Shown here in pieces: positions 1-8,257 of a stretch of 8,257 bases of DNA. The DNA is taken from the UHGV virus genome UHGV-0211679, one strand, 5' to 3'. This DNA comes from a virus. The first letter of the stretch is position 1. Each line of letters opens with the position of its first letter. The notes under the pieces were generated by a model. It searched no databases, was not told the origin of the DNA, and was given only the letters and a program-made list of their open reading frames with translations. The translations under genes were made by a program, and so were the position numbers.

Positions 1-1095
1 ATGGCGGTTCATGTAGTAACAGGCAAATTAGGCTCAGGCAAGACACTTGTTAGTGTTTCCAGAATACAGGAAAGACTTGCTAAGGGTTGTCCTGTTGCCA
101 CTAATCTTGATCTTAAATTGCATAATATGCCTATGGTTGGGCGTTATGCGAAAAAAACGCGCGTTATTCGCATTCCTGACAAGCCTTCATTAAATGATTT
201 ACTTGCTATTGGTATTGGGAATACATCTTACGATGAATCCCGTAATGGCCTCCTTGTACTTGATGAATGTGGTACTTGGTTTAATTCCCGCTCATGGGGT
301 GATAAAGACAGACAACCTGTTATTGACTGGTTTTTACATGCCAGAAAATTAGGCTGGGATATTATATTTTTGATTCAGGATATTTCGATAATGGATAAGC
401 AAGCTCGTCTGGCGCTTGCTGAGCATGTTGTTTATTGTCGCCGTTCAGATAAATTAAACATTCCTTTTGTTGGCTCCATTATGAATTTGGTTTCAGGGGC
501 GCGATTTTCTTTACCAAAGGTACACTTTGGCATTGTCAAATATGGTGATAACGTTAATTCAATTACTGTTGATAAATGGATATACACCGGAAAATCATTA
601 TATTCCGCCTACAATACAAAACAGGTTTTTACTGATAACTATCCGCATGGTGCTTATTCGCTTTTGCCACCATTTATCACGCACGGTCAATTTTCTGTTC
701 ACAGAGGATTTAATTATTATATGCGCCTCACGAAAATTTATTTTCGCAAATCGAACCGTCTTATATTAATGCTTTCTTTTTTGGCGCTGGGGCTTGCGCT
801 TGGTTTCTGGCTCCAGTCTGGAAAGAATGTTGATGAAATCTCCGCTATTAAATCTGCTTATGCTGAACAGGCGAGGGCGGTAACGCCTGATTCGTCCAGT
901 GACTTACCCCGACTTTCTATTAATTCTTTTTCACAACTTGGCTTTGACGTTTCCGTTACGTTTGTTGATGCAAAAGGTACGAAATATCAGTATTTTGATT
1001 TGATTAAAGATGGTTATTCCGTTGATATTAAAGATGCCTGTCGTGTTGTTATTAGAAAAGGCCGTTATTTACAGACTGTTATCTGTCAGGAGTAA
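1..1095 (+). CDS. I: Filamentous-phage assembly protein pI (gene I; Zot-like P-loop NTPase)
   Basis: 364-aa ORF from ATG at 1, stop TAA 1093-1095. Walker A GKLGSGKT near N-terminus. Blocks such as LLVLDECGTWFN, IDWFLHARKLGWDIIFL and LAEHVVYCRR match my recollection of M13/IKe pI. Hydrophobic segment ILMLSFLALGLALGFWL in the C-terminal third. Confidence 0.95.
   Translation: MAVHVVTGKLGSGKTLVSVSRIQERLAKGCPVATNLDLKLHNMPMVGRYAKKTRVIRIPDKPSLNDLLAIGIGNTSYDESRNGLLVLDECGTWFNSRSWGDKDRQPVIDWFLHARKLGWDIIFLIQDISIMDKQARLALAEHVVYCRRSDKLNIPFVGSIMNLVSGARFSLPKVHFGIVKYGDNVNSITVDKWIYTGKSLYSAYNTKQVFTDNYPHGAYSLLPPFITHGQFSVHRGFNYYMRLTKIYFRKSNRLILMLSFLALGLALGFWLQSGKNVDEISAIKSAYAEQARAVTPDSSSDLPRLSINSFSQLGFDVSVTFVDAKGTKYQYFDLIKDGYSVDIKDACRVVIRKGRYLQTVICQE
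721..1095 (+). CDS. XI: pXI (gene XI), in-frame internal start within gene I
   Basis: In-frame ATG at 721 (codon 241 of gene I) giving MRLTKIYFRK..., the position and sequence context where Ff phages start pXI (M13 MKLTKIYLKK). Inferred by analogy only. Confidence 0.55.
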   Translation: MRLTKIYFRKSNRLILMLSFLALGLALGFWLQSGKNVDEISAIKSAYAEQARAVTPDSSSDLPRLSINSFSQLGFDVSVTFVDAKGTKYQYFDLIKDGYSVDIKDACRVVIRKGRYLQTVICQE

Positions 1096-1102
1096 TATTA
1101 TT

Positions 1103-2368
1103 ATGCGCTCTGTTATTGTTGCTTTTTTATTTGCCTGTTCATTCTGCGTTTCTGCTGAAACTGTTAATTTAAACAATTCATCTGTTCGCTCATTTGTTCA
1201 GTGGTATTCTTCAAAAACTGGCAAGCCTGTTATTGTTAATCCTGATATTAAAGGAAACGTAACCGTATTTAATGCTGATGTTAATCCAACAAATATTGAT
1301 GATTTCTTTAAGTCTGTTCTGAATGCTAACGGTTTTGTCATGCTTTCTGGCAATCCTGCGGTAGTCTCTTTGCCGTCTAAATTACCTTCACAGATGGTTT
1401 CGGATTCCGATGATTCTGATAACCAGTCTTATGATACTTTTCCTTCTGAGCCATCTTACCAGCCAGTACCTGTGGCGCTTACGGTCAGAAATTTTAAGCT
1501 GACAAAAGTTAGATCGTCCGATGTTCAGCAACTGATTAAAATTTATCTTGATTCTAATGGTGGTGGTAATGTCGTGGATTATCCAGGCAATAACTCGCTG
1601 ATTGTTTCTGCGCCTGACGAGCTGCTGCCGGTTCTGTCCGATTTTATCAATTCTGTGGATGTTGCCCGCGATCAGGTTCTCATTCAGTCGCTGATGTTTG
1701 AAACCAGCTTGTCTGATGGCGTTGATTTATCGTTTGCGGCAGGTTCTGCATCCGGTCATAAGGTTGCGGGGGGCTTTAATACTTCTGCACTGGGTAGCGC
1801 TCTTTCTACGGCGGGCGGTTCTTTTGGTATTTTTGATGGTAACGTGTTGGCGCTGTCTCTGCGTGCTGTCCAGAGTAATTCACGCTCTAAGGTGATTTCA
1901 ACGCCGCGTATTCTTACTCAGTCTGGTCAGACTGGTTACATTTCCGTAGGTAAGAATGTGCCGTTTATCACCGGAAAGGTAACGGGCGAATCTGCCGGGG
2001 TAAATAATCCGTTTCAGACTATCGAGCGTCATGATGTTGGCGTTTCTCTCAAGGTAACGCCTGTTGTCATGGGTAACGGGCAACTAGTTCTGACTATCGA
2101 CACTCGCGCTGATTCAATCAGCAATGATGATCAGGCATCCGATATTATTACTAATCAGCGCCAGATTCAGACGACAGTCCAGATTAAGGATGGTCAGACG
2201 TTGTTATTGGGGGGGCTTATCGATTCATCGTTTAGCAATGCTGAGCGTTCAGTTCCAGTTATAAGTAAAATTCCTCTTATAGGCTGGATTTTCAGTAGCA
2301 AGGCAGACAGCAATGAACAGCGTATTATGTATATTTTGCTTACAGCACATATCATTCGTCCACTTTGA
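1103..2368 (+). CDS. IV: Filamentous-phage secretin pIV (gene IV)
   Basis: ATG 1103 preceded by AGGAG (1088-1092); stop TGA 2366-2368. Signal-peptide-like N-terminus MRSVIVAFLFACSFCVSA. Secretin blocks GGSFGIF, VPFITGKVTGES, NPFQTIER, GQTLLLGGL and IPLIG match recalled Ff pIV. The track ORF extension back to 1010 overlaps gene I and is not used. Confidence 0.93.
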   Translation: MRSVIVAFLFACSFCVSAETVNLNNSSVRSFVQWYSSKTGKPVIVNPDIKGNVTVFNADVNPTNIDDFFKSVLNANGFVMLSGNPAVVSLPSKLPSQMVSDSDDSDNQSYDTFPSEPSYQPVPVALTVRNFKLTKVRSSDVQQLIKIYLDSNGGGNVVDYPGNNSLIVSAPDELLPVLSDFINSVDVARDQVLIQSLMFETSLSDGVDLSFAAGSASGHKVAGGFNTSALGSALSTAGGSFGIFDGNVLALSLRAVQSNSRSKVISTPRILTQSGQTGYISVGKNVPFITGKVTGESAGVNNPFQTIERHDVGVSLKVTPVVMGNGQLVLTIDTRADSISNDDQASDIITNQRQIQTTVQIKDGQTLLLGGLIDSSFSNAERSVPVISKIPLIGWIFSSKADSNEQRIMYILLTAHIIRPL

Positions 2369-2412
2369 TGGATAGCGGGTAGGTGCGTGAGCCCTGCTCG
2401 CTATCCATCAAA
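2364..2412 (+). other. Long DNA hairpin directly after gene IV (candidate packaging-signal or intergenic origin hairpin)
   Basis: Inverted repeat TTTGATGGATAGCG (2364-2377) / CGCTATCCATCAAA (2399-2412): 14 perfect bp, extendable by about 6 more with G-T wobbles. Overlaps the gene IV stop. In Ff phages the packaging-signal hairpin lies immediately after gene IV. The structure is seen; the role is inferred. Confidence 0.5.
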
Positions 2413-2437
2413 TGGACATTATTGATTGGGGTAACTA

Positions 2438-2746
2438 ATGGATTCTTATGGGATTTTATCTGCTCTGGCAGAACGAACGATTACAGCGGAAGAAGCAAAA
2501 ACAATGACACTTGCAGCCAGAAGTTCTTCGGCTCAGGTAAATGAAGCATCACTTGCTCTGTTACTGATTGATAATACTCTGGATGCGATCAAAGCAGCTG
2601 CCAGTGAAGGGAAAGGATACACTTTACTTCCTTCTTATGAGATTTCTTTAAAAGCCATTGATTTAGCAGAAGAATTTTTAAGGAAACAATGCGGCTATGT
2701 TATTGATAACCAGAATGGCGTAAGGACGGTCTATTGGTTTATATGA
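2438..2746 (+). CDS. Hypothetical protein, 102 aa, no recognisable family
   Basis: ORF ATG 2438 to TGA 2744-2746; weak SD-like GGGG 7 nt upstream. Mildly acidic, predicted mostly helical, no TM segment. Flanked by two long hairpins, so it could alternatively be non-coding intergenic sequence. Confidence 0.4.
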   Translation: MDSYGILSALAERTITAEEAKTMTLAARSSSAQVNEASLALLLIDNTLDAIKAAASEGKGYTLLPSYEISLKAIDLAEEFLRKQCGYVIDNQNGVRTVYWFI

Positions 2747-2747
2747 T

Positions 2748-2792
2748 AACCCCGGACAGTGACAAAACTTGCTTTTGTTAGTGTCCGGGGTT
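2748..2792 (+). other. Long near-perfect DNA hairpin (candidate origin or structured intergenic element)
   Basis: AACCCCGGACAGTGACAAAA (2748-2767) pairs with TTTTGTTAGTGTCCGGGGTT (2773-2792): about 19 bp stem with one mismatch and one G-T pair, 5-nt loop. A T7 run sits about 20 nt downstream (2813-2819), too far for a canonical intrinsic terminator. Confidence 0.5.
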
Positions 2793-2863
2793 GGCCAAGC
2801 CGAACAATTCTGTTTTTTTAGCGTTATTGCTGATTCGGCGCGGCAGCATTACGAGGAGATAAA

Positions 2864-3097
2864 ATGCAATTTTTCACATCCAGCGATACTGTAATGTTAT
2901 GTGCGAAGACCTGCGATCGCTGTGGTCGCCATGCGAAGACGGTGGTAGATGACATTGAGTTCAATGAGTTTCTGTCTGTTAATCACTTAGCTGGATACGG
3001 TTCAATTTTTGGTGACAGTAATCGCTTAAAACTGGATTTATGCCAACATTGCCTGAAAGACGTCCTGGGCCAGTGGATTACGGTCTGTGACCAATGA
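2864..3097 (+). CDS. Small zinc-ribbon-like protein, 77 aa (CxxC...CxxC)
   Basis: ATG 2864 preceded by a strong SD GAGGAG (2853-2858) with 5-nt spacer; stop TGA 3095-3097. Two CxxC pairs (CDRC and CQHC) about 43 residues apart suggest a Zn-binding ribbon. No family assignment possible by eye. Confidence 0.6.
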   Translation: MQFFTSSDTVMLCAKTCDRCGRHAKTVVDDIEFNEFLSVNHLAGYGSIFGDSNRLKLDLCQHCLKDVLGQWITVCDQ

Positions 3098-3135
3098 CGG
3101 CACCGGTAACGCCAGTTCCCACCATCCTTACCATT

Positions 3136-3168
3136 GGTGCGCATAATGTACGACTCGTTATGTTGAAA
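3136..3168 (+). other. dif-like XerC/XerD recombination site (candidate attP of an Xer-exploiting integrative phage)
   Basis: GGTGCGCATAA (3136-3146) is an 11/11 match to the XerC arm of E. coli dif (GGTGCGCATAA-TGTATA-TTATGTTAAAT, recalled). Then TGTACGACTCG (11-nt central region beginning TGTA), then TTATGTTGAAA (3158-3168), 9/11 to the XerD arm. Central region is longer than the canonical 6 bp. Confidence 0.6.
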
Positions 3169-3202
3169 AGGCCGCTGCGAAAATAGAATCCCGCAGCGGC
3201 CT
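3169..3202. terminator. Hairpin between convergent genes, putative bidirectional intrinsic terminator
   Basis: AGGCCGCTGCG (3169-3179) / CGCAGCGGCCT (3192-3202): 11-bp GC-rich stem, 12-nt loop. Followed by CTTTA on + and TTTCAA on the minus strand, so the U-tracts are short. Lies between the end of the 2864-3097 ORF and the end of the minus-strand operon. Confidence 0.5.
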
Positions 3203-3232
3203 CTTTAGCATAACGTCATTGTGCGAACCAAT

Positions 3233-3937
3233 TCATAATGCTGCGGGAGCCACGTAATAGACAATCACAAATACAGCTAATGCTCCACCTGCTCTTACCC
3301 AGTTTGATATTTTGACTTCTATAAACCCGGGTATAAATGAGACTACCCCAGCAACTGCTGCTGAAAGAATTATTCGAAAGAAAGTGTATTGAAAGTTCGT
3401 TGGATTAGGTATAAATATTGCGATTATTATAAAAAGAATAACAAGTAAAATGCCAAAGCTAAATGCCGCTATTCTCTCGTGTGCTTTTGTCAATTTTTCT
3501 TTTCCTTTATTGTCAAATCCATATACTGGCATATCTTCATTAACGAAAAGATTCCTTATTTCTTTTGCAGAACGTTTGTCATGGGCTTTTACTATCCTTT
3601 GCATTGAAGCAAAAGCAGTGGAGCTTGGTTTAATACTATTATCATTCATTACCTCTCTATATTTTTTGTAATGAGCTAAGATAAGGTGAAGAACATCAAT
3701 GCATGTTTCTGCAAGCCATTGATTCCATTGAGTATTATTTAATTCATCTACTGTTCTGTTATGTGCAGCGCAGTGTTCTAAATAGCCGAAAAAACTGTCT
3801 CCACATGAATTCACGGTATCAAAATCACATTTACCAGATAGGTAACACTCTAATGACTCAGTATATTTTTCATATAAACGCTCAATTTCTTTTTTTTGAT
3901 TATCAATGATACCGTGAACATCCATATCTGATTTCAC
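3233..3937 (-). CDS. Membrane protein, about 230 aa: Cys-rich soluble N-domain plus C-terminal transmembrane helices; function unknown
   Basis: Minus-strand ORF, stop TGA (rc of 3233-3235). First codon is GTG at 3937-3935, overlapping the upstream TAG (TAGTG); the first ATG is at 3925-3923. N-terminal about 155 aa hydrophilic with C-x5-C-x7-C-x10-C (LECYLSGKCDFDTVNSCGDSFFGYLEHC). C-terminus has hydrophobic stretches FSFGILLVILFIIIAIFIP, FFRIILSAAVAGVVSFIPGFI and GGALAVFVIVYYVAPAAL. Visibly AT-rich compared with the phage core. Confidence 0.6.
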   Translation of the reverse strand: MKSDMDVHGIIDNQKKEIERLYEKYTESLECYLSGKCDFDTVNSCGDSFFGYLEHCAAHNRTVDELNNTQWNQWLAETCIDVLHLILAHYKKYREVMNDNSIKPSSTAFASMQRIVKAHDKRSAKEIRNLFVNEDMPVYGFDNKGKEKLTKAHERIAAFSFGILLVILFIIIAIFIPNPTNFQYTFFRIILSAAVAGVVSFIPGFIEVKISNWVRAGGALAVFVIVYYVAPAAL

Positions 3938-4212
3938 TATCTTTTTTGTTGAGTGTTATTTGACTGGGATTGAATTTTTGCCAATAGCGAACTTGCTTTC
4001 GATGTATTCAATCCATTACAAATCATTCTTGTAATCGGTTTTTTGTAAATTCGATGAACGATATTTTCAACTTCAGTGATGCTTTCATTGCCACTGAGTT
4101 TTTTTATCTCATTGAACATCTCCTCCAATTGTTCATTTGTTGGATGCCATTTGATTATATCTAATTCTTCCTCTAATGCTTTTTTAAAAAGGAAAACCTG
4201 AAAAGATAACAT
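3937..4212 (-). CDS. Hypothetical small protein, 91 aa, with C-terminal tail paralogous to the upstream ORF
   Basis: ATG at 4212-4210 preceded by AAGGAAAG with 4-nt spacer; stop TAG (rc of 3937-3939). C-terminal 26 aa NGLNTSKASSLLAKIQSQSNNTQQKR parallels the tail of ORF 4214-4510. Confidence 0.55.
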   Translation of the reverse strand: MLSFQVFLFKKALEEELDIIKWHPTNEQLEEMFNEIKKLSGNESITEVENIVHRIYKKPITRMICNGLNTSKASSLLAKIQSQSNNTQQKR

Positions 4213-4213
4213 A

Positions 4214-4510
4214 TTACTTTCCTTGTGTTGGTTTAGTAGTGGATTGTTGAGCTTTTTCTAAAAGCCTTTTTGCTTTAGATGTGTCCAAACCATCTTGGGC
4301 AAAGCCTTGTTGCTTATCATTCTGTTTTTGTTCACTTTTTTTTGGCGTATTCATCAGTATATACTTTGACTCGTTTTGTTTATCTCGATGACTTACTTTT
4401 TGTTTAAGTTTTGCACAAACTAGAACGTGCAGTGTTGGTAATACTGCACGTTTGTACCATTCGTGGTACTTAATCCTTTTGTTTGGCAGACATGAGATCT
4501 TCTGCTGCAT
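4214..4510 (-). CDS. Hypothetical small K/Q-rich protein (start uncertain), tail paralogous to ORF 3937-4212
   Basis: Stop TAA (rc of 4214-4216), 1 nt before the ATG of the next gene. The track start at 4528 is a TTG; the first ATG is at 4510-4508, and a later ATG at 4354-4352 would give a 46-aa product. None has a clear SD. C-terminal 26 aa DGLDTSKAKRLLEKAQQSTTKPTQGK. Overlaps the end of the RHH gene if started at 4510. Confidence 0.3.
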   Translation of the reverse strand: MQQKISCLPNKRIKYHEWYKRAVLPTLHVLVCAKLKQKVSHRDKQNESKYILMNTPKKSEQKQNDKQQGFAQDGLDTSKAKRLLEKAQQSTTKPTQGK

Positions 4511-4652
4511 CTTTAGAGTAGTTATCAATCAGATAACCTAAAATCTCTGTCCATGTAATTGTTTTTCCTAGTTTTACACTGGCATTTATAGCCAGTCGTT
4601 CTAGTTTCATTTTTCTTTCTTCCGTCACGTTATAAGTCGTGCGCTTTGCCAT
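4470..4652 (-). CDS. Ribbon-helix-helix-like small DNA-binding protein, 60 aa (candidate phage repressor or antitoxin-type regulator)
   Basis: ATG at 4652-4650, stop TAA (rc of 4470-4472). MAKRTTYNVTEERKMKLERLAINASVKLGKTITWTEILGYLIDNYSKD fits an RHH pattern: short N-terminal beta-strand (TYNVT), helix, turn, helix. Divergent from gene II across a repeat-containing region. Confidence 0.55.
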   Translation of the reverse strand: MAKRTTYNVTEERKMKLERLAINASVKLGKTITWTEILGYLIDNYSKDAAEDLMSAKQKD

Positions 4653-4699
4653 TTTTTACGCTCGTTCAATGCAATATTTGAAGTGAGTATACATGCTCA

Positions 4700-4779
4700 T
4701 GAACTCATATCATCCAAGCCTCTTGAACTCACTAGCTCACTGATGTAATGTTAAAACACTAATGAACTACTGAACTCAT
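4700..4779. promoter_or_regulatory. Four direct TGAACT(C/A) repeats in the divergent control region (candidate operator or iteron array)
   Basis: TGAACTCAT at 4700-4708, TGAACTCAC at 4724-4732, TGAACTAC at 4763-4770, TGAACTCAT at 4771-4779. Located between the RHH gene start (4652, minus) and the gene II start (4822, plus). Confidence 0.45.
4723..4751 (+). promoter_or_regulatory. Candidate sigma70 promoter for gene II
   Basis: TTGAAC (4723-4728), 17-nt spacer, TAATGT (4746-4751). The -35 overlaps one TGAACT repeat. Pattern match by eye only. Confidence 0.3.
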
Positions 4780-4821
4780 GTGTTAGTAAGTCGTCATTTT
4801 TGCAATTTTGAGGATTTATTC

Positions 4822-5874
4822 GTGATCGATTGGCTTACCGGGATTTTCCCTTGCACACACAAACCGCTTCCGGCGGGGAGTGTTGTCAGCGTTGATGCTG
4901 ACGGTGCAATTGAGTGGGAAACCGTTAAGCGACTGACTGTTCGCGGCTCGCATGAAGCAACGATGAAAGTACGATCGATAGGATCTAATGGCGAAGGTAA
5001 AGCGACACATTTGTACATTGATGGTAATCCGTCCAAGTTTTTGCAGGGGCATTCTGTTGTTGGGTCGGATGATATACAAGGGCTCATGTTGACGGTCTAT
5101 GCCAGGATTTTATCCTTATTGAATATTCCTCATGATTTAGCGTCTTATAAAGCTGTTATAGCAGGTCAGTATAAAATTTCACGTGTTGACATTAATTACA
5201 TGTATTCATTATCTACGCTAGAAAATGTCAGATCATGGCTTTATGCCGCCGAATTTAAAGCTAAAACACGCCATGGTCGCGCATGTGGGAAAGGCGGTAC
5301 AGTTTATTTAGGTAAAAACTCCCGTCGATGGAGTCTGAAATTTTATTCAAAATATGATGAACACGTTTCGGGTAAAAAAGGGCACCAGATAGCCGAAGAT
5401 TTTGTACGAGCCGGGTTACTGGACTGGACGAAAGATAAATTACGTATTGAATTAACATTAAGAACAACTGAGCTTATTGATTTAAATTTAACGCTTGGCG
5501 CTAACTGGAATATGAAAACACCACGTCAATTATTCTCTGAATATGTAGGGAGAATAGAAATGAATCAGAATGCTATTTTAAGTGATGAAAAAATAACGAA
5601 ACTGCCAAGAAAAATACAGTCAACTTATTTACTTTGGAAACAAGGGGCTAACATGAAAGAAATGTTACCTCATAACACTTTTTATCGCCATAGAAGAGAA
5701 TTGCTTTCGTTCGGTATCGATATTAATTTCTATTGTGATTCACCAGACTCTAATAACGTTGTTCCGCTAATAAGAACGCTGGAAGCCAAGCCAGTGGAAA
5801 TCCCCTTATGGATTTATGAGAAAGGTTTTATTTTCGATTACAACCGTATTTCGCACGCCAGTAGCTGGCATTAA
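4822..5874 (+). CDS. II: Replication initiation protein pII (gene II, rolling-circle nickase)
   Basis: GTG start at 4822 preceded by GAGGA (4810-4814) with 7-nt spacer; product begins (M)IDWL..., compare M13 pII MIDML.... Blocks NPSKFLQGHSVVGSDD and NNVVPLIR match recalled M13 pII (SPAKVLQGHNVFGTTD, NNVVPLVR). Stop TAA 5872-5874. An upstream in-frame GTG at 4780 lacks an SD. Confidence 0.85.
   Translation: MIDWLTGIFPCTHKPLPAGSVVSVDADGAIEWETVKRLTVRGSHEATMKVRSIGSNGEGKATHLYIDGNPSKFLQGHSVVGSDDIQGLMLTVYARILSLLNIPHDLASYKAVIAGQYKISRVDINYMYSLSTLENVRSWLYAAEFKAKTRHGRACGKGGTVYLGKNSRRWSLKFYSKYDEHVSGKKGHQIAEDFVRAGLLDWTKDKLRIELTLRTTELIDLNLTLGANWNMKTPRQLFSEYVGRIEMNQNAILSDEKITKLPRKIQSTYLLWKQGANMKEMLPHNTFYRHRRELLSFGIDINFYCDSPDSNNVVPLIRTLEAKPVEIPLWIYEKGFIFDYNRISHASSWH
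5560..5874 (+). CDS. X: pX (gene X), in-frame internal start within gene II
   Basis: ATG at 5560 in the gene II frame with SD GGGAG (5548-5552); product MNQNAILSDEK..., 104 aa, equal to the C-terminal part of pII, as in Ff phages (M13 pX starts MNIYDDSAVL). Confidence 0.6.
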   Translation: MNQNAILSDEKITKLPRKIQSTYLLWKQGANMKEMLPHNTFYRHRRELLSFGIDINFYCDSPDSNNVVPLIRTLEAKPVEIPLWIYEKGFIFDYNRISHASSWH

Positions 5875-5885
5875 AGGAAAGTAAT

Positions 5886-6203
5886 ATGTCTAATTATGGT
5901 CTTTTCGTTAAGGGTAAAATGTTGGGAGCCCGCCAACGTAATAAAGTTAATGGTCAGGGCTATTATAATGAAATTGGTATTGGCCTTGAAATACCTGATG
6001 GTTTTGGTGGTACAAAGCAGGATCAAATTATTATTCGAGTTTCTCAGACTCTCGTTAACGCAGGTCTAATGAACCAGGCGAATGCTTTCATTGGGAAATT
6101 AGTTCAAATTCCTGTCTATGTCCGTGCGTGGTCAATGGAGGGTAGGGAAGGTGTAACTTATAATGTTTCTTCCGATGGTGGCATCGCAGAGATCAAAGGT
6201 TAA
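5886..6203 (+). CDS. Gene-V-position protein, 105 aa (putative ssDNA-binding protein by synteny; not recognisably Ff gVp-like)
   Basis: ATG 5886 preceded by AAGGAAAG; stop TAA 6201-6203. Sits between gene II/X and gene VII, where Ff phages encode gVp. The sequence (MSNYGLFVKGKMLGARQRN...) does not resemble M13 or IKe gVp as I recall them. Confidence 0.55.
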   Translation: MSNYGLFVKGKMLGARQRNKVNGQGYYNEIGIGLEIPDGFGGTKQDQIIIRVSQTLVNAGLMNQANAFIGKLVQIPVYVRAWSMEGREGVTYNVSSDGGIAEIKG

Positions 6204-6205
6204 AT

Positions 6206-6292
6206 ATGGACGATGTTATTCAAATTTTGATAGCGTCTGGCATCGTTATTTCTTTTGGCCTCGGCGCGATTACTGCGGGGGTCTTTCGTTAA
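6206..6292 (+). CDS. VII: Minor coat protein pVII (gene VII), 28 aa
   Basis: ATG 6206 three nt after the gene V stop; product MDDVIQILIASGIVISFGLGAITAGVFR is hydrophobic, similar in size and character to M13 pVII. Stop TAA 6290-6292 overlaps the gene IX ATG (TAATG). Confidence 0.6.
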   Translation: MDDVIQILIASGIVISFGLGAITAGVFR

Positions 6293-6387
6293 TGTATATC
6301 GTTTATTTCTTCGGGGCTTATACCTTTGGTTTTGCCCTTTTCTATGCGGTCGGTTCATTTAAATCATTTTCTGACCGATTAATGTAA
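6292..6387 (+). CDS. IX: Minor coat protein pIX (gene IX), 31 aa
   Basis: ATG 6292 in the TAATG overlap; product MYIVYFFGAYTFGFALFYAVGSFKSFSDRLM is a hydrophobic peptide resembling M13 pIX (MSVLVYSFASFVLGW...). Stop TAA 6385-6387. The longer track ORF from 6163 is an N-terminal over-extension. Confidence 0.65.
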   Translation: MYIVYFFGAYTFGFALFYAVGSFKSFSDRLM

Positions 6388-6406
6388 CCTTAATGGAGTT
6401 ATTCCT

Positions 6407-6649
6407 ATGAAAATTCTGTCTACTGTTAAATATAAAGTTGCTCTGGCTTCAACTGCGCTTTTTGTTTCTGCAAGTTCTTTTGCGGCTGAAGGCGCTACAG
6501 GTGGTACTGATTATGCAGGTCAGGCAATGGATGCTTTGTTGACTCAGGCAAATGATCTCATTGGTAAAGTATGGCCTGTTGTTGTGGCTGTGGTTGGCGC
6601 TGGGCTTGCCATTCGTATTTTCAAAAAATTCTCTTCAAAAGCGGTTTGA
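6407..6649 (+). CDS. VIII: Major coat protein pVIII precursor (gene VIII)
   Basis: ATG 6407 with GGAG 8 nt upstream; 80 aa. Signal peptide ending SSFA, then mature AEGATGG...[25 protein letters not shown]. The C-terminal [11 protein letters not shown] and WPVV match my recollection of IKe pVIII more closely than M13 (FKKFTSKAS). Stop TGA 6647-6649. Confidence 0.93.
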
Positions 6650-6658
6650 ATTTCACTC

Positions 6659-6683
6659 AGGGGCACTCGTTGCCCCTTTATTA
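6659..6683 (+). terminator. Rho-independent terminator after gene VIII
   Basis: AGGGGCA (6659-6665), loop CTCGT, TGCCCCT (6671-6677), then TTTATT. Position matches the strong central terminator downstream of gene VIII in Ff phages. Confidence 0.75.
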
Positions 6684-6695
6684 AAGCGGGTTACT

Positions 6696-7916
6696 ATGAA
6701 AAGGAAAATATTAATTCTTTCCGCTGTCCTCATTTCTCCTTTTTCACATGCTGAGTCATGGGAAAGCATTACTAAATCCACTTATCAAAGCTCTGCCTAC
6801 GCTGAAAGTAAGCAAATAACCAATCAGGATGGCTCTAAGTCAACGGTTTACTATATTGATGCTGCTATGCAGGCCTCCGCTTGTCAGGGTGCTAAATCCA
6901 GTGCTCAGAGTGTATTTACTCAGGTTAAACCAACTTATGAGGGTATCTGGCCTGATTCTGAATTCCGTCTTGTTTTTACTGGTGATTGTACTTACAGCGA
7001 TTCACCAGGGCAGAAGGATAAATATTGGTCTTTAACGGCTTATATTGTTGGTGATATTCAGCGTTCTGTTCCTGATGAAAAACCTACTGACCCGACACCA
7101 GAAGAAATTTGTGAAGCGAAGCCGCCAGAAGAAGGTGTATTTAATAATGTTGATTCATATGATGGTGGTCGTTATATCTACTATAACGGCTGTGAATATG
7201 AGGCTACTGGTGTCATTGTTTGTCAGGGTGATGGTACTGTTTGCGCTGCAACATGGAAGCCTACAGGTACTGTAGCTGACCCCTCTGATAAACCCTCAAC
7301 CCCCCAAAATGGTGGTGGTGAGTCTGGCGGTGGTGAGTCTGGCGGTGGTGAGTCCGGTGGCGGTAGTTCTGGCGGTGGCTTTAGTGGTTCCAGTCTTTCT
7401 AAAGGTGATATTCAGTCTGCTATCGAAGGTGCTTCACCCAAAATAGCCAGCGATATTCATGATAAATTAACGGAGAAAGACACTTCATCAGATGATAAAA
7501 AAAATGCCGATGAACAAACTAGGAATAATATAAATCGTCTTGACGATTCCATTAACAATCTTACGCGGGGGGCTGGCCGTTTTGCTGACCCTTCAGGTGG
7601 TGATTCTCGTTATGGAAAGGGCGACTCTGAATTAGATGGCGCTTCTACTTTGGCTGATTCTGAATTGGGAATTGAAAAGGATTCTCACGGTGCTTTATGG
7701 GAAGCATTTTTAAATAAAGGTGCTATGCTGCCTAATTTACCCAATGGTAACGGCTGCTCTGATTTTATTATTTTTCCCGGAGAGGTTTATCAGATTGATA
7801 TTGGTTGCGATAAATTACTGACTATTAAAGATGTTCTTTCATGGGTTTTTTATTGCCTTACGTTCTGGTATGTCTTTACTTCTTTAACTTCATTGCTTCG
7901 CAAAGGGGGTGAGTGA
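6696..7916 (+). CDS. III: Adsorption protein pIII (gene III) with Gly-rich linker
   Basis: ATG 6696 gives signal peptide [19 protein letters not shown]. Gly/Ser-rich linker [23 protein letters not shown] and a hydrophobic C-terminal anchor ([14 protein letters not shown]) are typical of pIII. Stop TGA 7914-7916 overlaps the gene VI ATG (TGATG). The track start at 6552 overlaps gene VIII and is rejected. Confidence 0.9.
7311..7379 (+). repeat. Tandem 15-bp repeats encoding the pIII (GGGES)n linker
   Basis: GGTGGTGAGTCTGGC at 7314-7328 and 7329-7343, with diverged copies at 7344-7358 and 7359-7373. Confidence 0.85.
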
Positions 7917-8257
7917 TGCCTTTATTATTAGGTATTCCTGCATTGTTGCGTTTTCTTATTGGTCTTGTTCCTTTGTTTATTGGCTATGTGGCGAGTTTTT
8001 TAGCTCGACTTGCTACCAGAACAGGATTAATCGCCTTTGCATTGGTCGCATTAATTACAACAACTGTTACGCTTTTAATGCAGTACCTTGCTGAGGTCAT
8101 GTATAACGGTTTACCTGCTGATTTCTCCCATTTAATGGCGTCTGTATTGCCTGACCATTTTCAGGCGTGTGTTAACGTTATTATGGTTACTCGTATCAGT
8201 GTTTTTGTTTTCGATTTAAAACAAAAATTTCTTGATTATGCAAACAGGGTGATTTAA
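7916..8257 (+). CDS. VI: Minor coat protein pVI (gene VI)
   Basis: ATG 7916 (a GTG at 7913 is also in frame); product [17 protein letters not shown]... matches recalled M13 pVI (MPVLLGIPLLLRF...), including a C-terminal FDLKQK versus FDVKQK. Stop TAA 8255-8257 is the last codon of the window and abuts the gene I ATG at position 1 if the sequence is circular. Confidence 0.88.
   Translation: MPLLLGIPALLRFLIGLVPLFIGYVASFLARLATRTGLIAFALVALITTTVTLLMQYLAEVMYNGLPADFSHLMASVLPDHFQACVNVIMVTRISVFVFDLKQKFLDYANRVI

Follow-up and report, generated by a model that had tools for sequence, protein, structure and literature searches.

One complete 8,257-nucleotide unit of a temperate filamentous phage, probably of the UPΦ group, with a foldable double-site attP

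The stretch of DNA analysed here, virus genome UHGV-0211679 (8,257 nucleotides (nt); hereafter the window), is, with a probability that we put at about 0.9, the full unit of a filamentous, temperate UPΦ-group phage, circularly permuted so that gene I comes first. The finding is already known in its outline: UPΦ viruses were described by Shapiro & Putonti (2020, Virus Evolution; PMC7307601), and the exact variant is present in RefSeq Escherichia coli genomes. Our analysis adds a foldable phage attachment site (attP) of the double-site CTXΦ/YpfΦ type, candidate packaging and origin elements, and an accessory-gene slot lying between attP and an origin-like hairpin. The candidate packaging element is common to IKe and I2-2, the candidate origin elements to YpfΦ and I2-2.

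A complete filamentous phage unit and its relatives

The window opens on the ATG of gene I (bases 1-3), an open reading frame (ORF) of 364 amino acids (aa) with a Zot domain (Pfam, E 2.6e-40), and closes on the TAA of gene VI (bases 8255-8257), whose 113-aa product is a recognisable homologue (DUF5455; phrog_1944 minor coat). An earlier reading made from the bare letters (the sequence-only reading) had placed both ends in this way. Between the gene VI stop and the gene I start there is a spacer of 0 nt, compared with 1 nt in IKe and M13. A 120-nt probe spanning the join from 8257 to 1 matches the chromosome of E. coli 85.0412 exactly at two places, and a 42-nt probe across the same join has matches in 10 IMG/VR contigs, which are linear prophage excerpts without terminal repeats and are no proof of circularity. 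Since the join occurs both in a chromosome and in these contigs, the window corresponds to exactly one period of a unit that is repeated or circular. In chromosomes its ends run on into another phage copy, never into host DNA, and the host junctions fall inside the window, at 3136-3150; the one complete unit that the sequence-only reading had proposed is borne out. With about 16 gene starts among 8257 positions, the start on a gene boundary is not chance, and the cut looks as if a circular contig had been rotated on purpose.

Every Ff gene was found intact, in the order I, IV, II(X), V, VII, IX, VIII, III, VI, which agrees with the full gene set of the sequence-only reading; none is truncated. 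Read around the unit this is the Ff-type order II-X-V-VII-IX-VIII-III-VI-I-IV with recognisable homologues, each call being backed by Pfam or PHROGs as well as by tblastn to IKe/I2-2. Percentages in the list are for amino acids.

1-1095, + strand: gene I, assembly ATPase with Zot domain (Pfam Zot); 66/64/54% to IKe/I2-2/M13
1103-2368, + strand: gene IV, outer-membrane secretin (Pfam Secretin, GspD N0, Secretin_N); 71/73/50% to IKe/I2-2/M13
4822-5874, + strand: gene II, replication initiator (Pfam Phage_CRI, E 3e-70; G2P_X_C, E 5e-29); 86% to YpfΦ, 56% to I2-2
5560, + strand: gene X, in-frame start within gene II, 104 aa; codon 247, the same as in the annotated I2-2 gene X
5886-6203, + strand: gene V, single-stranded DNA-binding protein (Pfam Putative_G5P, E 7e-51); 93% to YpfΦ, 40% to I2-2
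6206-6292, + strand: gene VII, minor coat (Inovirus_G7P_2 and phrog_19107/phrog_28333 for the VII/IX pair); 70% to IKe
6292-6387, + strand: gene IX, minor coat (Pfam/PHROGs basis listed jointly with gene VII); 57% to IKe
6407-6649, + strand: gene VIII, major coat protein (Pfam Phage_coatGP8); 60% to IKe
6659-6677, + strand: terminator-like hairpin after gene VIII, by folding; same place as the annotated IKe stem-loop
6696-7916, + strand: gene III, attachment protein (Pfam G3P_pilus-bind, Phage_Coat_A)
7916-8257, + strand: gene VI, minor coat protein (DUF5455, phrog_1944); 52-53% to IKe/I2-2; TAA is the last codon

The attachment protein has the IKe-type domain order, pilus-binding and then TolA-binding: residues 20-128 of the gene III product match PDB 4eo0 (IKe pilus-binding) and residues 130-195 match 4eo1 (TolA-binding). 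Its variable GGGES linker is encoded by 15-nt repeats at 7310-7369, with 30 nt more in the 85.0412 copies, and draft assemblies break at these repeats, as in one 8,317-nt contig (L024). Within gene I, we take Met241 (nt 721) to be the likely start of pXI, by analogy with Ff pXI.

The gene IV stop and the gene II start lie 2,453 nt apart in the window, compared with ~738 nt in IKe. The cargo in this interval therefore accounts for the larger genome, as the sequence-only reading had held.

Close relatives are found in chromosomes. At least 80% of the window is carried at ~99-100% identity by 47 complete E. coli genomes, among which 85.0412 has two head-to-tail copies at dif, beside hipBA, with 100% identity except for the 30 nt in gene III. 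The prophage of E. coli ECONIH2, named in PMC7307601 among the UPΦ viruses as a triple, shares 99.9% nucleotide identity with the window. Deposited phage genomes gave no near match: gene IV is the sole segment with nucleotide matches there, and only ~190 nt of it resemble IKe and the Erwinia PEar phages. According to PMC7307601, UPΦ phages have an IKe/I2-2-like core, genes II and V >85% identical to those of YpfΦ, GGGES variation and tandem arrays; their gene IV is followed by two novel ORFs, and reverse ORFs lie next to dif. The window matches this description in each of these traits. The unit of UPΦ901 is 7,560 bp (PMC7307601); the window is longer by 697 nt, so that its attL-side cargo differs from that of UPΦ901. 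From its sequence, then, the window reads as a UPΦ variant with a larger accessory block.

At the protein level the genome is a mosaic. By tblastn, the products of genes I, IV, VII, IX, VIII, III and VI show 50-73% amino-acid identity to IKe/I2-2, while those of II, X and V show 86-93% to YpfΦ and 40-56% to I2-2. The gene II protein is only 22-23% identical to its IKe and M13 counterparts (the IKe match being 23% over 47% coverage), and gene V has no tblastn match in IKe or M13. The replication proteins are thus not of the IKe type, and a YpfΦ/I2-2-type module stands in their place. The earlier label of an Ff/IKe-like inovirus therefore fits the coat and assembly genes, which are IKe/I2-2-like, and has to be given up for genes II, X and V. 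The genome combines IKe/I2-2 (Lineavirus-like) coat, assembly and packaging functions with YpfΦ/I2-2-type replication and CTXΦ/YpfΦ-type attachment.

Two contigs under other names stand beside these relatives. A 25-kb contig assigned to a 'Candidatus Nanosynbacter' metagenome-assembled genome (JARKOR010000214.1) holds a UPΦ prophage with 98.8% identity, at the end of which stands a perfect dif of the E. coli type, and is almost certainly a mis-binned enterobacterial contig. A Brenneria alni contig of 9,278 nt carries the same attP twice, once at each end (5-117 and 9043-9155), and is therefore a unit of ~9,038 nt that is either circular or collapsed from a tandem. It shares orf60 (98% aa; described below) and gene II (94% aa) with the window, and has no tblastn match to genes I, III, VI, VII, VIII and IX and only a 28% aa match to gene IV; its coat/assembly module is therefore a different one.

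The attachment site and insertion at dif

The attachment region lies as follows.

3133-3232, + strand: attP, with two dif-like sites

Site A consists of a XerC arm (3136-3146), an 11-nt central region (3147-3157) and a XerD arm (3158-3168), and reads GGTGCGCATAA-TGTACGACTCG-TTATGTTGAAA over 3136-3168. A G+C stem (3170-3179/3192-3201) lies between it and the inverted site B (3203-3229). The (+) strand folds into a forked hairpin that pairs sites A and B (-31.2 kcal/mol, z -7.7). In a chromosomal locus (L001), attL is host sequence joined to site A, with the 11-nt central region, and attR is a perfect 28-nt dif; the copy-to-copy junction is identical to the window and again has the 11-nt central region. 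The 15 nt common to attP and dif (3136-3150), which comprise the XerC arm and the first four central bases, TGTA, place the crossover there. Inverted paired dif-like sites, a crossover on the XerC side, and a dif regenerated at one end with a non-dif hybrid at the other are the marks of the CTX class, and all are found here. Moreover, the attP of the window and that of YpfΦ differ by 1 mismatch in 106 nt. YpfΦ is listed as a CTXΦ-class element (PMC4246890), and CUS-1 is likewise placed in the CTXΦ class by the literature. Scans with Pfam and with NCBIfam/PADLOC found no integrase or transposase family in any ORF of the window. Read from its sequence, the element is best described as a dif-integrating temperate phage with a CTX-class attP.

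An uninterrupted junction from h2, the accessory gene on the left of attP, into attP is present in 35 complete E. coli genomes, and a few others show attL and attR only. As this junction can exist only in a tandem array or a circle, the 35 genomes hold chromosomal tandem arrays.

For the CTXΦ class, the literature gives a folded single-stranded attP, XerC-catalysed exchange that replication completes, irreversibility, and rolling-circle production from arrays (PMC4246890). By the same route, the packaged strand of our phage, presumably the (+) strand, would fold at 3133-3232, where the computed fold brings the two inverted dif-like sites into a forked hairpin. Host XerCD, the enzymes assumed from CTXΦ and YpfΦ, would bind this hairpin, and XerC would exchange one pair of strands with chromosomal dif within 3136-3150. 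Replication would then fix the insertion and restore a perfect dif on the right, where more copies could enter to build the arrays; the junctions and the arrays themselves are observed.

Part of the attP also occurs on plasmids. A piece of ~71 nt, corresponding to window 3159-3230 (the end of the XerD arm, the G+C hairpin and site B), is found at ~91% identity on 441 PLSDB plasmids, 393 of them conjugative and 348 from Escherichia, and at ~480 plasmid places in complete E. coli genomes. On pAPEC2908 (3001-3071) it abuts a reverse-strand STM4504-family gene, as does the left end of some UPΦ variants, and it is flanked by insertion sequence remnants near etsABC-like efflux genes. The plasmid piece looks like a relic of the left end of a dif phage captured on ColV/F-type plasmids.

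Conserved elements, accessory genes and a candidate cargo slot

The interval between genes IV and II holds the non-coding elements and the accessory genes.

2358-2417, + strand: candidate packaging (morphogenetic) signal, a near-perfect long hairpin overlapping the gene IV stop
2438-2746, + strand: h1 (orf102), conserved UPΦ accessory gene; phrog_4115 over its full length, same family in all UPΦ variants inspected
2745-2850, + strand: element A, conserved non-coding; a hairpin (2748-2792), then GGTTGGCCAAGCCG and CGGCGCGGCAGC
2864-3097, + strand: h2 (orf77), CxxC...CxxC small protein, conserved UPΦ accessory gene; phrog_5435
3233-3937, - strand: orf234 (in RefSeq 230 aa, from nt 3925); phrog_5814; all-helical N-domain and C-terminal module of three transmembrane helices (3-TM module)
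3937-4212, - strand: orf91; phrog_6502, RefSeq WP_000948310.1
4214-4354, - strand: orf46; RefSeq annotates the 46-aa form only
4401-4475, + strand: element B, conserved; hairpin 1 (4424-4452), with GGTAATAC at its apex, and hairpin 2 (4454-4469)
4470-4652, - strand: orf60 (h3); phrog_2503; divergent from gene II, identical WP_001335098.1 in all UPΦ variants inspected
4653-4821, no strand assigned: divergent control region between orf60 and gene II, with four TGAACT(C/A)(A/C) repeats at 4700-4778

Folded as single-stranded DNA, the candidate packaging signal reaches -24.5 kcal/mol (z -9.8). Its apex (2376-2398) is 91% identical to the annotated signal of IKe (6158-6179) and 95% to that of I2-2 (2281-2301), in the same position, which indicates that the packaging signal travels with the coat/assembly module.

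Element A, located between h1 and h2 (fold z -5.6), has a mean column identity of 81% across the window, Y. pestis YpfΦ, K. spallanzanii, Brenneria and Phytobacter, and the ORFs on its flanks are unrelated. It may be a (-) strand origin, an accessory origin element or part of the (+) origin. In element B (fold z -4.9) the core GAACGTGCAGTGTnnGTAATACTGCACGTTTGT is invariant in six sequences, namely the window, YpfΦ, K. spallanzanii, Brenneria, Phytobacter and the intergenic region of I2-2, and hairpin 2 shows compensatory changes (GTACCA/TGGTAC versus GTCTCA/TGAGAC). The element accompanies gene II of the YpfΦ/I2-2 type in phages that differ in their coat modules, and lies behind the divergent orf60, the place taken by the origin in CTXΦ; we propose it as the best candidate for the (+) strand origin. 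Its apex, GGT/AATAC, resembles the nick sites of Ff and pT181, so that a nick would presumably fall at T4439/A4440, which we take as a lead only. The intergenic region of I2-2 (~2666-2915) has the same origin-like hairpin and a reverse-strand, frameshifted homologue of orf60 (43% identity, 58% of orf60); both fit descent from, or recombination with, an integrating relative.

The motif TGAACT(C/A)(A/C) has six matches in the window versus 1.0 expected, and the four that cluster at 4700-4778 are putative operators. The position of orf60 equals that of rstR in CTXΦ and of YPO2273 in YpfΦ, and its product, which by eye is of the ribbon-helix-helix type, is likely a repressor. An Rfam scan of the window found no family at the gathering threshold. 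A consensus promoter/terminator scan returned fewer sites than shuffled sequences, and its result was not used.

Among the accessory genes, h1 and h2 are the novel ORFs of the UPΦ description (PMC7307601), and both lie between gene IV and dif, as in that group; homologues of h2 are confined to close relatives, and none of them is named. The AlphaFold2 model of orf234 (pLDDT 85.6) shows a helical domain and three membrane helices, and a Foldseek search of the model against the PDB gave nothing below E 0.7. The 3-TM module, ~85 residues encoded by window 3233-3490 (the C-terminal third), is highly conserved, with the consensus IPNPTxFQY...FRIVL...PGF...RAGGALAVFVIVY, and has no Pfam family or PDB fold match. 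Elsewhere, in Vibrio and in many metagenomic contigs, unrelated domains are joined to it at either end, a pattern that would suit a shared membrane effector module. Searched against Pfam, NCBIfam and PADLOC, the six cargo ORFs returned sub-threshold noise only. The products of orf91 and orf46 have similar C-terminal tails, GLNTSKASSLLAKIQSQ and GLDTSKAKRLLEKAQQS (reverse strand, 3937-4010 and 4214-4290), a similarity that suggests a duplicated motif or a common partner. A mechanical 104-aa ORF (orf104), extending orf46 to 4528, was not accepted as a gene over its full length, since its upstream portion runs across orf60 and the conserved hairpins.

All UPΦ variants inspected have h1, h2 and orf60 in common, whereas the block at 3233-4400 varies. 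It has a GC content of 0.32-0.34 and reverse-strand ORFs (3233-4354), and is bounded by attP and by the origin-like hairpin pair of element B. Across nine loci its limits fall at 3231-3241 and 4369-4417, and from 4401 onward the conserved non-coding sequence is present in phages with other cargo. The contents of the slot were as follows.

Window: orf234, orf91, orf46
E. coli 1368KP: DUF6953, a PD-(D/E)XK nuclease-domain protein, a 140-aa hypothetical protein
E. coli EC23 and a Salmonella circle: a Doc/Fic-family protein
ECONIH2 copies 2 and 3: a hypothetical protein, an ECs_2282-family putative zinc-binding protein, a further hypothetical protein
Other E. coli (for example NCTC9104, Res13-Lact-PEB17-18): an STM4504/CBY_0614-family protein

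In ECONIH2, where copy 1 has cargo of the orf234 type, copies 1 and 2 show 0 differences over cores of 7,015 nt and differ in their slots; the exactly identical sequence breaks off at 3184, within the attP loop, and starts again at 4422, a single base ahead of hairpin 1. For CTXΦ, hybrid genomes arising by rolling-circle production across mixed arrays are described (Davis & Waldor 2000, as cited in PMC4246890). By that analogy, the ECONIH2 pattern would be the outcome expected of rolling-circle production across a mixed array. A double-stranded prophage does not present the folded site; as in CTXΦ, the gene II protein would probably nick the origin of one copy and terminate at that of the next. 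On this route the segment from attP to the origin, with the cargo slot (3233-4400), would come from the downstream copy, which would account for the exchange of precisely this slot between phages that are otherwise identical.

It is tempting to go one step further, to a model that we offer tentatively and consider less likely than not. The stretch ~3151-4421 would be a dedicated exchangeable slot with limits set by rolling-circle production, the upstream copy supplying the core and the downstream one the slot. Phages with different coat modules (UPΦ, YpfΦ and relatives) would trade host-affecting or defence-type genes through mixed arrays, and the relics of the same slot on >400 conjugative plasmids would be spill-over from this cargo pool. 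Examples of traded genes would be the 3-TM protein here and the PD-(D/E)XK nuclease, Doc/Fic and STM4504-family proteins elsewhere. As we infer it, this cargo-slot model is the only part of our account that lies beyond the literature consulted here. If true, it would provide a simple and testable route for shuffling accessory genes among uropathogenic and other enterobacteria.

Alternative readings and comparison with known phages

An insertion at dif next to hipA first brings to mind CUS-1 and YpfΦ, the classical dif filamentous prophages of E. coli K1 and Y. pestis, which share with the window the insertion site, a near-identical attP, II/V proteins at 86-93% aa and tandem arrays. However, CUS-1 and YpfΦ are 99% identical to each other in nucleotides over 7.1 kb, a likeness that the window does not share. 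What it has in common with the YpfΦ of Y. pestis comes down to attP, two short non-coding elements, and genes II and V, whose nucleotide identity is 80%; tblastn against YpfΦ found no match for genes I, III, VI, VII, VIII and IX, and gene IV matched at only 27%. We consider the identity with either phage ruled out by this nucleotide and protein comparison with the Y. pestis locus and give it virtually no credence. It also seems very improbable that the element is a decayed, cryptic prophage remnant that forms no particles. The UPΦ authors did obtain no new laboratory infections (PMC7307601), and remnants of related elements exist on plasmids. Yet all genes of the window are intact, copies are identical within arrays, the near-identical unit occurs across genera, a circular copy exists, and culture supernatants contained DNase-protected phage DNA in the case of UPΦ901 (PMC7307601). 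For a filamentous particle with circular single-stranded DNA, the evidence is this report.

A closer question is whether the window was, as the sequence-only reading supposed, a free circular replicative form or virion genome, and so never part of a chromosome assembly. It comprises exactly one unit without redundancy, cut at a gene start in the manner of rotated circular contigs. A circular record of 7,938 bp in Salmonella enterica PNUSAS210186 ('plasmid unnamed2', NZ_CP140410.1) is a complete UPΦ-type genome with Doc-family cargo and the phage form of attP, and starts exactly at the gene IV ATG. UPΦ901 sheds DNA in DNase-protected form into supernatants (PMC7307601), and YpfΦ, according to the literature, exists in many hosts mainly outside the chromosome. 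Small 'plasmids' in which the same attP occurs (E. coli CP128883, 9,565 bp; Citrobacter CP069805, 10,242 bp) may be dif-phage replicative forms as well. On the other hand, all listed complete E. coli genomes with most of the window hold it in a multi-megabase chromosome at dif, and the h2-attP junction probe indicates tandem arrays in 35 genomes. Short-read assemblers collapse such arrays into unit-length contigs, and the stand-alone 8,317-nt draft contig of the same unit mentioned above (L024), cut inside gene III, is such a case. The tandem junction equals the circle junction base for base, so that the sequence fits a free circle and a collapsed array alike. Of the earlier claim, the exact single period stands, and the choice of a circle has to share its place with a collapsed tandem-array unit. 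A free origin is a genuine possibility, though on balance we would expect it somewhat less than the opposite. In any case the two are different physical states of the same element, and not different elements.

Several further points weigh against the account of a temperate UPΦ-group phage as given here. The window may be a collapsed tandem-array unit instead of a free replicative form. UPΦ901 was compared by its description, and membership in the group rests on ECONIH2 and the described traits. What is said of Xer dependence, of integration through the single strand, of the nick site and of rolling-circle output from arrays is carried over from CTXΦ and YpfΦ. The attP is near-invariant, so that covariation in its fold is supported by one diverged sequence, that of Brenneria, in which the XerD arm shows one compensatory pair and the G+C stem is rearranged. 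Element A, and not element B, could be the (+) origin, and gene conversion between tandem copies could also give the identical ECONIH2 cores.

Taken as a temperate phage of the UPΦ group, the element compares with known systems as follows. With the described UPΦ phages it shares the E. coli host, insertion at dif next to hipA and tandem arrays, together with the IKe/I2-2-like core, genes II and V of the YpfΦ kind, the pair h1 and h2 downstream of gene IV, reverse ORFs on the dif side and GGGES variation in gene III. It differs from UPΦ901, a 7,560-bp unit, in its length of 8,257 bp with orf234, orf91 and orf46 as attL-side cargo. Where the UPΦ paper speaks of 'a copy of the dif site' (PMC7307601), the window has a two-site foldable attP, and a perfect dif occurs only at attR.

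IKe and I2-2 (genus Lineavirus) resemble it in gene order, coat and assembly proteins (50-73%), the apex of the packaging signal and the domain order of the attachment protein, and I2-2 also in the type of gene II (56%), the origin-like hairpin and the frameshifted homologue of orf60. Unlike the window, these two are non-integrating phages without attP or cargo, with genomes of 6,883 and 6,744 nt. YpfΦ and CUS-1 are alike in attP, elements A and B, genes II, X and V, tandem insertion at dif and accessory ORFs at both prophage ends, whereas the coat and assembly genes of YpfΦ are essentially unrelated, and its region from the origin hairpin to gene II (orf60 and operators) and its cargo differ. 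CTXΦ of Vibrio cholerae, finally, has a similarly folded (+) strand attP of two inverted dif-like sites with a crossover on the XerC side, a dif regenerated at the right end, tandem arrays and cargo at the prophage ends; its repressor and replication genes are divergent, and the origin lies behind the former. It differs in host, coat module and cargo, the window being without toxin genes, and its likeness to the window would, by analogy, extend to the mechanism of integration.

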